Below, in pieces: positions 18,001 to 24,000 of a stretch of DNA of 60,072 nucleotides. The position numbers are program-made. Source of the DNA: Escherichia coli (GTDB taxonomy: Bacteria; Pseudomonadota; Gammaproteobacteria; Enterobacterales; Enterobacteriaceae). The DNA lies in the NCBI RefSeq assembly GCF_017348835.2, contig NZ_CP072314.1; one strand, given 5' to 3'. Each line of letters opens with the position of its first letter. The first letter of the stretch is position 1.

Positions 18001-21000
18001 TGACTCACCTAGAAGAGCTGGCGCCACGTGTGGAACAGTACAGCATCGATGAGATGTTTCTCGATATCCGTGGTATAGACAACTGCATCGACTATGAGGA
18101 CTTTGGGCAGCAGCTACGCGAACACGTGCGCTCAGGAACGGGGCTGACAATAGGTGTCGGGATGGGGCCAACCAAAACGCTGGCTAAAAGCGCGCAATGG
18201 GCGTCCAAGGAATGGCCACAATTCGGTGGTGTGCTTGCCCTGACATCACACAATCCGAAACGAACGGAGAAACTGCTTTCACTGCAGCTGGCGCGCGCGA
18301 ACCCCGTATTTATCCGGAAGAATTTCAACGTTGTACTGGAGAGAACGGTCCGGGAACTCAACGGAGAAAGCTGTATTGAACCGCCCCGGGTTTCCTGGAG
18401 AGTGTTTTATCTGTGAACTCAGGCTGCCAGATCATTATTTCCGATGGAAGCATAATAAGCTTTTTCTGCTTCTGCCGGAGGAATATGGCCCAGCCTTTCC
18501 AGCAATCGTCGATTGTTATACCAGTCCACCCACGTGAGTGTGGCCAGTTCCACTTCTGTCCGGTTTTTCCAGCTCTTACGGTGTATTACCTCCGCTTTGT
18601 AAAGACCATTGATGCTCTCAGCCATCGCGTTGTCATACGAGTCGCCAGTACTCCCTGTTGATGCCAGTAATCCGGCTTCCTTAAGCCGCTGCGTGTAGGC
18701 CAGCGATACATACTGAGAACCTTTATCACTGTGATGGATTGTGCCGGACGGCCGACGGGCCCACAACGCCTGCTCCAGTGCATCCAGCACGAATGTTGTT
18801 TCCATGGATGATGAGACCTGCCATCCCACGATGTATCCGGCGAACACATCAATGATGAACGCCACATAAACGAAGCCCTGCCATGTGCTTACCCAGGTAA
18901 AATCAGCCACCCACAACTGGTCTGGACGTTCTGCCACGAACTGACGGTTTACGCGGTCGCATGCGGCAACGGCTTTCCGGCTGACGGTAGTGCGGACCTT
19001 TTTACCCCGGAGAACACCGGCAAGTCCCATAACCGCCATGAGACGTGCCACAGTGCATCTGGCCACTCTGATACCTTCCCGTAACAACTGACGCCAGACT
19101 TTACGCACACCGTATACCTTGTGATTTTCATCGTATACGCGCTGTATCTCTTTCTTCAGCCAGTCATCGCGCTGCGCACGGGCACTGCGTTTATCCGGAT
19201 AATGTCGCTGTTGCTGACAGTGGTAATACGTTGACGGGGCAATATGCAGTTCGCTGCATACCGGTCCGACCCCGTACTGCTCACGCAGCTTATCCAGCAG
19301 TGGCATTATTTTTTCCAGAGGCGGTCGAACTCCGCCTTCGCAAAATAAGCGGAAGCCTGGCGAAGGATATCGTTACTGCGGCGCAGTTCACGATTTTCAC
19401 GTTCCAGCTCTTTCAGACGCTGACGTTCAGCGGTGGTGAGTCCACCATCACCACTCCCGGTATCCCGCTCATGCTGGCGAACCCAGACACGCAGAGTCTC
19501 CGGCGTACAGCCAATCTTTGGGGCAATGGAACAAACTGCCGCCCACTGTGAGTCATATTCATCCTGACTTTCCAGAACCATACGAATCGCCCGCTGACGG
19601 ACTTCGGGGGAAAAACGAGTATTTTTAGTCATCCTGTTTACCTCTTTCTCAGGGAGTTTAGTCTCCAGGATTTCCGGGGCGGTTCAGTATTTCGCTTGAA
19701 GAAGCTCCCCCGCCGAAACAGCAGATTGTCTGCAGCAGGTCTTTTGGGGAGCGTATCACAACGTATGAAGCCCTGCGTCAGGCAGTCTGTCAGTACGCTG
19801 AGCGTGCTGCGGAAAAGCTGCGCGGCGAACGGCAGTTCTGCAGGCATATTGTCGTATTTGTGAAAACAATGAGCCCTACTACGGTAATCTGGCCAGTGAA
19901 AAGCTGCTCATCCCCACGCAGGATACATGGGACATCATTGCCGCTGCCGTCAAAGCCCTGGACAGGATCTGGGTGAATGGCCACCGCTATGTAAGGGCAG
20001 GCTGCATGCTGAACGATTTTACGCCGACCGGAGTTTCACAGTTGAATCTGTTTGATGATACTCTGCCCCGAAGCAACAGTAATCAATTGATGAAAGTCGT
20101 GGACGGTATTAACCATTCTGGACTTGGGAAAGTGTGGTTTGCGGGGCGAGGCATAGCTCCTGAGTGGCAAATGAAGCGCGAAATGTTGTCACCAGCATAT
20201 ACGACACGCCGGACTGACCTCCCGGTGGCAATGATACGATGACCTTTGACATCCTCCCCGTCCAGAAGGACGGGGCTTTATGGCACATTAGGTAAGCAAA
20301 GATTTCGCATGCGAAATCTTTGCTTTAATTACGGCGGTGCAACTGAATAAGTGCCTGAGAAGGACGATAGTGCTGTTTTGCCCATCGTCCATAATTATTA
20401 ACGGTCTCATACTGACGTTCTGCGGCACCATCACGGTAATACAGTATATGGAGAACCCCCTGTCGCTGCAGATAGTTGGCTACGGTTGTTACATTGTTGC
20501 GAACGAAGCGCATCTGGCTCTGGAAAGAATCAAGATCAACTCCGTCCTGTCCATCATCAAACGCATCGAGAATAAAAGCGATTAACGCTGAAGCGATAGA
20601 ACGCCTACCAGAGCCAGCAATACAAGCATCAAGCTCCTGAAAGGTCATCTGAATTTCCTGTTATAACGGTAGTGGGCATCTTCTTCTATTGCAGCCACAA
20701 ACCATCCTGTAGCAGTTTGCCTGTCTATACTATCAGGCAAGGATGCAACTAACAGTTCAAGTGAAAGTTTACGATTAGCTCTGAATATCAGTGCCGACAT
20801 CCCACACCATTCTTGATTACTCTCTGGCTTCCAGCCAATCTTGAGCATCATCGTTAATGCGGTCTGAGCCGCCCACAGAGGCGTTTCAGCGGGATTCGAT
20901 AACCATGATAATAAGGCTGCTCCAGGCACAGGTCTACTTCTTGTAACGTATCCAAGATTGATAGCAGCTTCTGTTAATGCAGCAGCTGCTTCGGATTGAG

Positions 21001-24000
21001 TTCCGGGATATCGAAGCGCCCAGAGACGGACAATTTGGCCACGGAATGCAGTGGCCATTTCAGTGAATGGGGTTGATTTCATCACAAAGACCGCATTCCC
21101 TTGACACGAACCTCTGAAGCCTCGACGGATATTTCACCAATATCTAATTTAACCCACACATAGCCATCTTCCTCTGGCGCACGGTCGGTCATTATTACTC
21201 CCTGCTGACCGTCAATCTCGACAACTACCTGCCAGCTTTTTACATCTGAATTGTTATTAAGAGACTTGGATGGCCTTTTATTCTGAGCTTTAGATTTCGC
21301 ATGCGAAATCTCACGGTTGCTTTTGTTCTTAACCTCATCAAGAACAGCTTTAACTTGCGCGCGTGAAATACCAGATTCTCGCGCAGCTGCAATAAGCTTC
21401 TCGGCTTCTTCAGGAGCCCTTTCATTTACCTGTATTAGTGTGTAAGCCAAATCAATATCGGATGTCACTTTATCCCGGAGAAGGGCGGTAACATTCTCTG
21501 GAGCATCAATGAGACGAAGATGTTTACTGACAAATGAGGTTGGTTTACCCATCGTTTTTGCGATCTGTTCACCCGTCATATTGAAGTGATGCTTAAGTTC
21601 ATAGAACGATCTTGCAGTCGCTAATGGTTTTAAACCCGATTGCTGAAGGTTTTCAATGAGCTGACCAATGATTCGTTCTTTTCTTTCTCGTGGTGGTTTA
21701 CCGACATAAATATCAATATGGGTATCACCACGTTTACGTGCAGTACGAACTCGAGTTTCTCCTAACCATATCTGGTATCCACGTCTGTCGCGGGGATAAC
21801 AACGAGGCGGGGTAAGCATCCCTATGGTTTCGAAAGTATCTGCCATACCATCGATAACCTCTTCATCGAAATCTTCTTCAGGTCGTACTTGTTCCTCAGC
21901 ATAAACCAGGTTTATATCGACGCGGATTATCTGTCCATCAGGTTCAAGAACCGGGCGGGCAATATCTGTCAAAATCTGGTGCGCAGCTACGTCATGGCTC
22001 TTCTCATCTGGCTGTTTATTTGCAATGACTTGTTCAATATCAGAGACAACAGCAGAGTTTTTTTTCATTTCCTGCTGCGCCTTGAGTCGTTTCATAAACG
22101 GTTTCTTGGCCATTATTTATCTCCTGCGATCTGAATAATTTTCTGGGTAAGCTCTTTATACTGAATTGCAGGAAGACACTTAGGATCATATTCATCAAAT
22201 GAGAGGCCAAGTTCTATCGCTTCTTTGGCAGCAGCAGGTACAAATGATATATAGGCAAGAATGTACTCTTCGGAATATCCTTTTCCCTGAAGGATCTCAA
22301 TGAGTAGATTCAGATTCAGTGTATCAATAGGTCCCAAATACCCTTCTTTAAGCGGCTTTTTATAATTTTTTACCGGTGTTTGGGTCACATAAGTGCCCAT
22401 AAACTGCAACGATGGATTATAGTTCCGTTTTATTTTTTGCATGTAAGTAAGCTGTTTACCAACTGCATTTCGGGCCTGCTTCTCCAACAGAGTAGGGATC
22501 AGAAGATAGTCAGCTGACATATGTGCGGCGATCATAACGTTTGAATATGATGGCGCTGAATCAGCAATAATAAAATCAAACTGTTTCTTCAGTTCTTCAA
22601 TACGGTCTCTGAAGTCGAACATACAGTCGCTGTTGCGGTAGTTAATTTCATTAAGCTCACTGGTAGCGCCAATAAAAAAACGCCCGCCAGGAAGCTCAAT
22701 CGGTCGAACTTCAGTGTCCGGGAAGAAAAGCTGATATGTATTCGCTTCGCCGGGTGTAAAACTGTTACTTAAAGGTTCGCGCTCTATCTCATAGGGTAAG
22801 CTATCGGGGAAAGCTCTCTCTGTCAGACCAGTAGTCCAGTCCATATCAATTTCAAGCACACGAAAACCTGATTCTCGAAGATCATATGCTATTTCGCTGG
22901 ATGACTGCGATTTTACGATTCCGCCCTTCTGGCTACATATAACGATTAATTTTCCGATAGGTCCAATTTTCAGTGTCATGTAACAGTCCTTAAGATTTCG
23001 CATGCGAAATGTTTGAGAGGGGGCGGCGCGGATTGAAAAAGTATTGCTGTAATGATATGAATTCATTGCGGTATTTCATACACACTCCTGTGAGTCAGGC
23101 GTTGCGCCAAGATGCAGAAGCAGCTATCTACTACTGCGTTTGTTGCCATACGTTCATGACAATATGAACAGTATACAGAGAAATCATAGAGTATCAATAA
23201 TGATACGCAATAGATTTCGCATGCGAAATCTTATTTCAGTTCATAAGTATCCCAAAAATACTTACGTCAAATGTTACGTAACTTCCGCTCCACACTGGAC
23301 ACTAGGATTAACTGTCCTGCGTACACAAAAAAAAACCTTACGGGCTGTTGCATATTCAGTGCATTCATCTGAGAGCGTAAAAATTTTCCCCGCGTTGAAC
23401 ACTCATACCATGACATTTTTCAATCATCAGAATAGTTTGGTCAGCAGCGTTTAATTTATCCTGAAACACCTGATCGGGCGCTTCTCCGCGATAAAAAGAT
23501 GGCGGCGTAGAAAGAATGTCCTCCATAACAATCATTAATGAGGCAACTTCTTCACCACTCAAGGTGCCGCAGTTGTGTATCAGATCGCTGTGCAGCTTCG
23601 AAACATGTGCTGCCATTGCCATTGAATAGGCCATTCCACTTTTCGTTCTGGTTGTTGCTGATGTCTCAGAAAGCGCGCGCCAGTATTCATAAATAGATCT
23701 GACTGTGGTGATTAATTTTTGGGTGTAATCCTCTGAAGTGAAGAGTTGGGTGCTGACAGTAAAGGGAAGTTTCCCATTTTCAGCAATATACTGATAGAGC
23801 AACGTAATGGCCTGCGTGGGGTTGGTTCCCAGCAGTTTCATTTTTTCATCCGTGCGTTGTTTGAGTTCATCAATAGGAATTAAAACCCCCAAAAGATTAA
23901 AAAAACACCACAAAACGGATATTTCTTCAATACTCCTTATGCACCATATGAACGAAAACGACTATTAAACAGGATAACACTGATTGATAAAGGGTATGAA

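Follow-up and report, generated by a model that had tools for sequence, protein, structure and literature searches.

The operon and its palindromic sites

The stretch of Escherichia coli DNA analysed here (contig NZ_CP072314.1 of assembly GCF_017348835.2; 60,072 nucleotides, hereafter the window) carries on its minus strand a four-gene cassette, parA, parB, orf146 and orf107, together with four copies of a short palindrome that we consider the putative centromere site, parS, of a plasmid partition system. An earlier, sequence-only reading had proposed four minus-strand genes with overlapping stop and start codons, the first two being ParA-like and ParB-like. The open reading frames (ORFs) were found as described, and hidden Markov model searches identified the first two products as a ParA ATPase and a KorB-family ParB. 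The gene junctions read TAATG, TGATG and ATGA, with overlaps of 1, 1 (or 4) and 4 nucleotides, which indicates translational coupling.

The first gene, parA (22113..22979, minus strand), encodes a 288-residue ParA/MinD-type ATPase without an N-terminal helix-turn-helix (HTH) domain. Its deviant Walker A motif, KGGIVKS (residues 16-22), fits the pattern xKGGxxK[ST], and the protein matches AAA_31 (2e-21) and CbiA in Pfam and the ParA-like family of PHROG (9e-24), while scoring below the cut-off of the NCBIfam ParA partition models. The start codon is most likely the ATG at 22979, and not that of the 317-residue maximal ORF. RefSeq places the start of parA at this same ATG in identical E. coli plasmids (288 residues), and that of orf146 at the ATG at 21082 (145 residues).

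The second gene, parB (21082..22113, minus strand), encodes a 343-residue ParB of the KorB family, as judged from Pfam, NCBIfam and PDB sequence matches and from family alignments. Its domains follow the order N-terminal ParB domain with the CTPase (cytidine triphosphatase) fold, HTH and KorB DNA-binding domain, variable basic linker and C-terminal KorB_C beta-barrel. Pfam matches were obtained with ParB_N, HTH_ParB and KorB (PF08535, i-Evalue 3.3e-16, residues 178-263), and at the C-terminus with KorB_C (PF06613, 3.6e-5, residues 295-327), which corresponds to the SH3-like beta-barrel dimerisation domain; this region aligns with the C-termini of the R751, RA3 and IncC KorB proteins. The protein scores 75.6 bits with TIGR00180 of NCBIfam (cut-off 58.45), its best PDB sequence matches are Spo0J, Noc and KorB, and it is colinear from end to end with R751 KorB at 22% identity. 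The N-terminal motifs Q75-x-R77, G118-E-x-R121-x-R123 and E154-N155 (E-N-L-Q) are kept in the family, and the HTH region (FVSKHL and its surroundings) is the most conserved portion of the protein in the family alignments.

The two remaining genes encode small proteins. The first, orf146 (20645..21085, minus strand; 145-146 residues, isoelectric point 9.5), is translationally coupled to parB and has 145 codons when read from the ATG at 21082; its product belongs to an uncharacterised family and is predicted to be all-alpha. The second, orf107 (20325..20648, minus strand; 107 residues), is coupled to orf146 through the ATGA overlap and encodes a predicted winged-helix DNA-binding protein.

The palindrome was found in the window as an exact 18-mer, GATTTCGCATGCGAAATC, at 20301-20318, 21293-21310 and 23213-23230, and a fourth copy at 22994-23011 has a single mismatch, at the outermost base. 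The sequence-only reading had counted four 18-bp copies around the operon, two upstream of parA, one in the 3' end of parB and one downstream of orf107, and all were located there. No further copy with up to four mismatches occurs anywhere in the window, and dinucleotide-preserving shuffled sequences gave a mean of 0.05 matches, with four matches in none of 100 shuffles. What relatives have in common is the perfect 16-bp palindrome ATTTCGCATGCGAAAT; the G/C on either side of it in the 18-mer differs among them. We designate this 16-mer, with its 14-bp core TTTCGCATGCGAAA, as the putative parS of the cassette and number its copies in the direction of transcription.

The two upstream sites lie 235 bp and 16 bp before the parA ATG. 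The distal one, parS-1 (23214..23229), is an exact match situated just upstream of the promoter -35 hexamer, and has a syntenic copy in every relative examined. The proximal one, parS-2 (22995..23010), lies in the 5' leader, is invariant in the alignment of upstream regions and occupies the same position in loci L023, L030, L078 and L089. The internal site, parS-3 (21294..21309), covers codons ~268-274 of the 343-codon parB; its translation, I-S-H-A-K, falls in the linker that joins the DNA-binding domain to the dimerisation domain. The last 16-mer, at 20302-20317, starts 7 nucleotides past the orf107 stop codon within a 28-bp perfect palindrome, GCAAAGATTTCGCATGCGAAATCTTTGC (parS-4, 20296..20323), which itself begins 1 nucleotide past that stop and separates the par operon from the convergent umuDC. 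The extension to 28 bp is not conserved in relatives, and in the lineage of the window it may double as a hairpin or terminator. An Rfam scan gave a sub-threshold match to HgcC, an archaeal non-coding RNA family, at 20233-20408 (minus strand; 32 bits against a gathering score of 50), which spans the 3' end of orf107 and the palindrome and was judged a chance match driven by the long hairpin; a weak nrdJ match was likewise treated as chance.

Conservation of the sites and of the cassette

Relatives with proteins 54-90% identical to those of the window, namely Klebsiella pKPN-332, a Citrobacter plasmid, Providencia pPR-310_79 and three metagenomic contigs, have the perfect 16-mer at all four corresponding positions. 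In the wider set of loci, with ParB at 44-90% identity (Klebsiella, Citrobacter, Providencia, Serratia, Mixta, Erwinia, Pantoea and metagenomes), the 16-mer, or failing that its 14-bp core, is kept at syntenic positions, and more distant cassettes still retain the 14-bp core TTTCGCATGCGAAA. The upstream pair of sites is present in the Mixta, Erwinia and Pantoea loci, and two upstream copies were found in L023 (ParB 51% identical). Serratia pK17-KPC (ParB 44% identical) has six copies of the type GTTTCGCATGCGAAAC upstream of parA and one past the fourth gene, and L012 (ParB 34% identical over the aligned core in BLAST, 30% over the full length) has one copy past the fourth gene. A site past the fourth gene also occurs in L002, L003, L006, L009, L008 (with a variant core) and pK2044. 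Where substitutions occur they are symmetric, as in GAATTC...GAATTC of Klebsiella and pK2044 and GTTTC...GAAAC of Serratia; the Klebsiella copy of parS-1 has a symmetric double change, GAATTCGCATGCGAATTC.

The internal site allowed us to separate conservation of the DNA from that of the protein. Its translation, ISHAKS, forms an island in the otherwise variable ParB linker, present only in those ParB proteins whose gene has the site and absent in Serratia and L012. In six diverged parB genes, 12 of the 139 invariant residues (9%) use the same codon in all six, and five of these 12 are the consecutive codons of the internal site, the sole run longer than one. Freezing of five codons against a background of 9% shows that it is the DNA, and not the protein, on which selection acts to hold the internal site in parB.

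The gene order is conserved as well. ParA, a KorB-type ParB, an orf146-like and an orf107-like protein follow one another with overlapping junctions in all close relatives, in Providencia and in Serratia, and the same four-gene order is found in three distant metagenomic cassettes whose ParB is 30-51% identical. The fourth protein of these distant cassettes matches the orf107 profile with E = 7e-16 and 2e-11 in two cases and marginally in the third (E = 0.0035, 6 bits). The site remains invariant while orf107 and orf146 fall to 22-45% identity.

Additional sites were observed in some of the relatives. A fifth exact copy lies inside umuC, ~800 bp past orf107, in L003 (7573), L006 (7564) and L007 (3492), and is found neither in the window nor in the E. 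coli plasmids. The Kluyvera, Citrobacter pR56A and Enterobacter sp. Ag1 loci have two extra exact sites 60 bp apart (L076 5270-5345; L046 635-710; L028 10258-10333), which straddle the 3' end of an unknown 457-residue gene between orf107 and umuC; one of them reads ...ISHAKS in frame. The 457-residue protein has no match in NCBIfam or PADLOC.

Among the 72,556 records of PLSDB, 609 plasmids carry the locus at the DNA level, three from E. coli at 99% identity or above and 606, mostly from Klebsiella, at 80-90%. At the protein level, ParB at 60% identity or above was found in ~640, orf146 in 715 and orf107 in 680, so that the cassette is present on roughly 1% of PLSDB plasmids. The carriers, for the most part Klebsiella plasmids, include the reference hypervirulence plasmid pK2044, with the cassette at 117,060-119,714 beside an F-like sopAB, pKPN-332 and pWSCRKP-1, which also have both the cassette and sopAB, and the Serratia KPC-2 carbapenemase plasmid pK17-KPC.

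When one genome per species was scanned for exact 16-mers, clusters linked to the cassette appeared in Enterobacter, Mixta, Citrobacter, Kluyvera, Pantoea, Erwinia and a Paenochrobactrum-binned contig, along with many singletons, in a number close to the chance expectation. More than 20 Bradyrhizobium species (L026, L034, L041, L043 and ~20 further loci) have one exact 16-mer each, probably a single inherited chromosomal locus unrelated to the cassette. A 673-kb contig of Paenalcaligenes suwonensis (L032 5038, 5525) has two exact 16-mers 487 bp apart, downstream of a P4-type integrase-like ORF, and no ParA, ParB, orf146 or orf107 in the 6.5 kb examined. The integrative element SGI1 copies the parS of IncC plasmids, and the L032 sites could be a similar mimicry of parS by an integrative element that hijacks the system.

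Upstream region, accessory genes and genomic setting

The region upstream of parA was analysed in an alignment of six loci, with a mean column identity of 67% for the intergenic DNA. A consensus scan predicts a sigma-70 promoter at 23170..23197 (minus strand; 10/12 matches), with a -35 hexamer TTGATA, a 16-nucleotide spacer and a -10 hexamer TATACT, and both hexamers fall in conserved columns. The -35 hexamer is overlapped by a second inverted repeat, IR2 (23186..23211, minus strand), ATTGCGTATCATTATTGATACTCTAT, which lies 2 bp past the 16-bp core of parS-1 (3 bp past the 18-mer). Its consensus across the aligned upstream regions is ATTGCaTATCAnTATTGATAtGCAAT, with one copy per locus at a constant position, and in the Providencia locus it forms a perfect 26-bp palindrome. 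In other subfamilies a different inverted repeat lies at the same place over the -35 (ACAGATAGAGAATCAtcaTTGATTCTCTATCTGT in Erwinia and TATGTTTTCgttatTGAAAACATA in L023), despite parS and the leader hairpin being unchanged in both. A repeat that changes with the subfamily next to a constant parS fits an operator that co-evolves with a regulator encoded by the cassette. IR2 is thus a candidate operator for a second, cassette-encoded repressor, for which orf107 would be the obvious binder and orf146 the alternative. The AT-rich symmetry of IR2 also led us to consider a Fur-box-like site for a host protein, which we did not adopt as the half-site arrangement differs and the repeat varies between cassette subfamilies.

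The upstream region carries, in the order of transcription, parS-1, IR2 with the -35, a conserved CAGATAGCTG block, a GGCGnAACGCC hairpin, the block CTCAnAGGAGTGnnTATGA, parS-2 and the parA Shine-Dalgarno sequence. The hairpin of the window, GGCGCAACGCC, is at 23098-23108, and CTCAnAGGAGTGnnTATGA, invariant in the six loci, comprises a Shine-Dalgarno sequence and a start codon. This start, the ATG at 23079, opens an upstream ORF (uORF) of 29 codons (22990..23079, minus strand), which in the window reads ...NISHAKS across parS-2 and whose TAA stop overlaps the parA Shine-Dalgarno sequence. In all six loci the uORF stays open in frame through parS-2 and ends on or just past the parA Shine-Dalgarno sequence, with a length of 24-34 codons and a peptide that is not conserved. 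Retention of the frame in six of six loci despite the changes in length suggests that translation of parA may be coupled to a leader ORF that crosses the putative ParB site. The hairpin and the Shine-Dalgarno block also occur in more distant loci, and a weak consensus fold of the leader was found. The ORFs annotated between the upstream sites in L003 (84 residues) and Serratia (88 residues) are mutually unrelated; the L003 ORF is the short leader uORF lengthened upstream. Apart from the non-conserved uORF of 24-34 codons, there is no gene between the promoter and parA that could encode a KorA-type partner.

For the two small proteins, the sequence-only reading had found no family that it could name. 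No match was indeed obtained for either in Pfam, NCBIfam, PHROG or PADLOC; a fold can nevertheless be assigned to orf107, which is predicted to be a winged-helix protein. The AlphaFold models are confident, with predicted local distance difference test scores of 92 for orf146 and 94.8 for orf107. The model of orf146 is all-alpha, possibly with an XRE-like HTH; this fold has no solved close relative, and its AFDB neighbours are all uncharacterised gammaproteobacterial proteins. Each protein has dozens of homologs with conserved Trp, Gly and Arg positions, and an exhaustive profile search collected 144 clusters of orf146 at 50% identity. The small ORFs are not fragments of known genes, the case that would have spoken against the sequence-only reading: they are conserved, have confident folds and recur with the cassette. 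No kinship was detected with RA3 KorA, RA3 Orf11, IncC 053 or the R751 ORFs, a set that included KorA, KfrA, KfrB and KfrC, and the orf146 and orf107 profiles have no match in R751 or RA3.

Proteins similar to orf146 also occur outside the cassette. In L010, which has no KorB-type ParB, an orf146-like protein follows a 643-residue HTH_ParB protein, and a palindrome related to the site, TTTTTCGTATACGAAAAA, lies in the 3' end of the orf146 homolog (5406-5423). In L011 and L025 orf146-like proteins are followed by an unknown 268-residue protein, in regions that resemble integrative and conjugative elements (type IV secretion system coupling protein, ArdA).

In the window the cassette lies between a RelB/DinJ-like gene on one side and the convergent umuDC on the other, with a Rep3-family repB beyond. 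The upstream neighbour (23365-23913) encodes 182 residues, of which the first ~70 match RelB/DinJ antitoxins and the long C-terminal part has no assignment; no cognate toxin gene adjoins it on the same strand. On the other side umuD spans 17269-17748, and umuC is split into an N-terminal part (17748-18416) and the C-terminal 89 codons (19973-20242) by an IS3-family element with two ORFs (18419-19632); umuC is intact in the near-identical plasmid NZ_CP027439. The PADLOC defence models have no match to the small proteins or to the neighbouring cargo genes.

In the IncR plasmid pK245, the backbone slot flanked by a Rep3-family repB and umuDC is taken by parAB genes (15787-17966 of L019), as it is here by the cassette. 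Identity of the cassette with IncR parAB was considered and rejected, as pK245 encodes a 401-residue type Ia ParA and a 324-residue ParB and has no small genes and no such palindrome. Partition modules thus seem to be exchanged within a conserved backbone slot.

Relation to known partition systems and proposed function

The cassette belongs to a known kind, the KorB-subfamily ParABS systems, and its nearest characterised relatives are parAB053 of IncC plasmids and incC-korB of RA3. The palindrome had been described as having a KorB-operator-like architecture, which the comparison supports, and as not recognised, which it does not, since the sequence falls in the known KorB/ParB operator class: its core departs from that of the IncC parS by a single symmetric base pair, and its arms recur in the RA3 KorB operator/parS. 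In IncC plasmids the parS core TTTCACATGTGAAA, bound by ParB in electrophoretic mobility shift assays, overlaps the parA promoter and serves in autorepression as well as in partition (PMC10954446). We verified two TTTCACATGTGAAA-type sites in a control IncC locus, and the IncC-type core, with up to one mismatch, is absent from the window and from the relatives. Like the cassette, parAB053 of IncA/IncC plasmids (R55/pVCR94 type) encodes a small ParA, a ParB with ParB_N, KorB and KorB_C, and, within one operon with them, a small HTH-type third gene; the two ParB proteins are 30% identical over the core. The IncC system differs in that 12-14 parS copies are distributed over the backbone and need AAAC/GTTT flanks (PMC10954446), whereas the cassette has four (up to seven) local sites with variable flanks. 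It also has a single accessory gene, 053 (a 90-residue HTH protein), instead of two, and the orf107 profile shows no relation to 053 (hhalign probability 1.9%, no BLAST similarity).

The RA3 (IncU) korA-incC-korB-orf11-parS region is an active partition cassette, in which KorB spreads from parS (PMC7414963, PMC4820964). The RA3 KorB operator/parS, aTTTCG-TACGTA-CGAAAt, which we located at 2075 and 9707 of NC_010919, has the ATTTCG...CGAAAT arms of our palindrome, around a centre of 6 bp in place of 4 bp. The two systems also have in common a KorB-type ParB, a parS downstream of the operon (in RA3 beyond the convergent mpR) and a small accessory gene. RA3 KorB is larger (452 residues, ~25% identical to the cassette ParB over the HTH region), korA is located upstream, and Orf11 is a 75-residue hydrophobic protein unrelated to orf146 and orf107. 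The targets of RA3 KorB further include the promoters of orf02, mobC and orf023 in other parts of the plasmid (PMC7414963).

The KorB proteins of the IncP-1 plasmids RK2 and R751 have the same domain order as the cassette ParB, including the SH3-like C-terminal dimerisation domain, at 22% identity. Their operator is TTTAGCSGCTAAA, with 12 copies plasmid-wide. RK2 KorB is a sliding clamp dependent on cytidine triphosphate (CTP), which loads at its operator, becomes locked at promoters through KorA, a small DNA-binding protein, and represses from distances of up to 1.5 kb (PMC11790492). The operator of KorA lies in the promoter, an arrangement matched by parS-1 beside IR2, and the pairing of these two elements recalls that of the OB and OA operators of KorB and KorA. 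KorA is encoded upstream in IncP-1 plasmids and is unrelated to orf146 and orf107.

Chromosomal ParABS systems (Spo0J/ParB) use a 16-bp parS, tGTTTCACGTGAAACa, and in Bacillus subtilis a parS lies within the parB gene (spo0J) itself. The cassette site is likewise a 16-bp palindrome with GTTTC/GAAAC-like arms (compare the Serratia variant GTTTCGCATGCGAAAC), but its half-sites are of 8 bp instead of 7 bp, GCA|TGC replaces AC|GT at the centre and the core is 2 bp longer. Spo0J and Noc are the best PDB sequence matches of the N-terminal and HTH domains of the cassette ParB. It differs from chromosomal ParB in its C-terminus, a KorB beta-barrel, and the cassette is plasmid-borne and has two accessory genes.

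The distribution of the sites sets the cassette apart from the plasmid systems described above. On the complete Serratia plasmid pK17-KPC (87 kb) all seven sites fall within 30.1-34.4 kb, on the complete E. coli plasmid pPE164 (41.7 kb) all four are at the cassette, and the same holds for the four sites in the 92 kb scanned of pK2044 and the four in the window. A few relatives have extra sites 1-2 kb away, but no site was seen at a transfer or replication promoter. All sites being local, unlike the dispersed sites of RK2, RA3 and IncC, the cassette has the appearance of a portable module whose own DNA is the centromere. It contains the genes and sites expected of a ParABS system, that is, a ParA with a deviant Walker motif, a predicted ParB with the CTPase fold and an HTH, and a repeated palindrome conserved nearby. 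We consider it likely that this is a self-contained partition module of the KorB subfamily, in which the ParB homolog binds the 16-mer, and the operon is probably autoregulated. ParB is the predicted binder because of the likeness of the site to those of IncC and RA3, and because the site is fixed while orf146 and orf107 diverge and the HTH region of ParB is the most conserved.

In the mechanism that we infer from these comparisons, a ParB/KorB dimer most likely binds the 16-bp palindrome ATTTCGCATGCGAAAT as parS. On the model of RK2 KorB and chromosomal ParB, this palindrome would be the loading point of a CTP-dependent ParB clamp, which would then spread along the ~3-kb operon; since the four sites bracket and interrupt the operon, the operon itself would be the centromere, and the plasmid would be positioned on the nucleoid by the 288-residue ParA ATPase. 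Promoter and leader are flanked by the two upstream sites, at which ParB, bound or stalled, would act as a repressor of its own operon. The winged-helix orf107 and the all-alpha orf146 would act as accessory DNA-binding factors, the most likely role of one of them being to bind the repeat over the -35 beside parS-1 and to act as a co-repressor with ParB, as KorA does with KorB.

Several observations weigh against this proposal. The arginine-rich motif of ParB is GETRVR and not the canonical GERRxR, so that CTP binding by ParB is not guaranteed. Many carriers, such as pKPN-332 and pK2044, have sopAB as a second partition system, so that the cassette may be redundant or have some other function. 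Some plasmids have sites outside the cassette, the fifth copy in umuC and the pairs 60 bp apart, which hints at functions beyond the operon. Finally, the assignment of IR2 to orf107 or orf146 draws on position and co-variation, with no homology of these proteins to KorA, Orf11, 053 or Kfr.

The foremost alternative is that the cassette is mainly a global transcription circuit of the Kor type, in which the KorB homolog would silence backbone genes through the palindromes as operators, and partition would be secondary or absent. The KorB domain architecture, the two sites flanking the promoter and leader, the site adjoining the 3' end of the convergent umuDC (with another in umuC in some relatives) and the repression by RK2 KorB from up to 1.5 kb away (PMC11790492) would all agree with such a circuit. 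However, on two complete plasmids and in the 60-kb window the sites are in or beside the cassette and none is at another promoter, whereas operators occur at transfer promoters in RA3 (PMC7414963) and 14 copies are scattered in IncC (PMC10954446), and the ParA ATPase is always co-encoded and translationally coupled. A Kor-type regulon is therefore improbable, and a centromere combined with autoregulation fits the local sites better.

It is less probable still that the palindrome is the operator of orf107 or orf146 and that ParB recognises another sequence. DNA binding is predicted for both small proteins, which invariably occur with the sites, and the orf146 homolog of L010, without a KorB-type ParB, has the related palindrome TTTTTCGTATACGAAAAA; L010, however, also encodes the 643-residue HTH_ParB protein. 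The near-identity of the site to the IncC parS, which is bound by a ParB with a KorB domain (PMC10954446), the arms in common with the RA3 KorB site, and the invariance of the site while orf107 and orf146 diverge to 22-45%, with the HTH region of ParB best conserved, all argue for ParB as the binder. That the palindromes are mere RNA hairpins, terminators or dispersed repeats without a protein partner is very hard to sustain, for although parS-4 is part of a 28-bp perfect palindrome where two operons converge and parS-1 is flagged as terminator-like on the plus strand, one copy is in a coding region with frozen synonymous positions, substitutions are symmetric on both arms, the extended palindrome of parS-4 is not conserved in relatives, and the sequence is of a known ParB-operator class.

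For the small proteins, a more specific role within the partition module can be envisaged by analogy with RK2. Orf146 and orf107 together might form a new, two-protein counterpart of KorA for the ParB-CTP clamp, a reading to which we give a low probability. One of the two would then bind the subfamily-specific inverted repeat over the -35 and stall or lock ParB arriving from the adjacent parS; the other, all-alpha, would bind ParB itself.

We found no publication on the cassette, its site or its proteins in the searchable literature, which may not include subscription-only papers, and this version of the KorB-type cassette and its two small genes appear to be unstudied. The uncharacterised elements are the two conserved accessory proteins, the candidate second operator close to the promoter and the leader uORF. 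The cassette is carried by hypervirulence (pK2044) and carbapenemase (pK17-KPC) plasmids, and a defined centromere sequence could allow incompatibility-based curing or destabilisation of such plasmids by parS decoys, as well as typing of plasmid partition loci and ParB/parS labelling tools. With a parS that is one base pair per half-site from that of IncC, the cassette and the IncC system together are also a natural test case for the evolution of specificity in KorB-type ParB proteins and for the avoidance of cross-talk. If orf146 or orf107 proves to be a clamp-locking or loading partner, this would extend the recently described KorA-KorB mechanism, and if the two are indeed a KorA counterpart, the orf146-like proteins found beside ParB-like proteins would represent a general, undescribed class of ParB partner.

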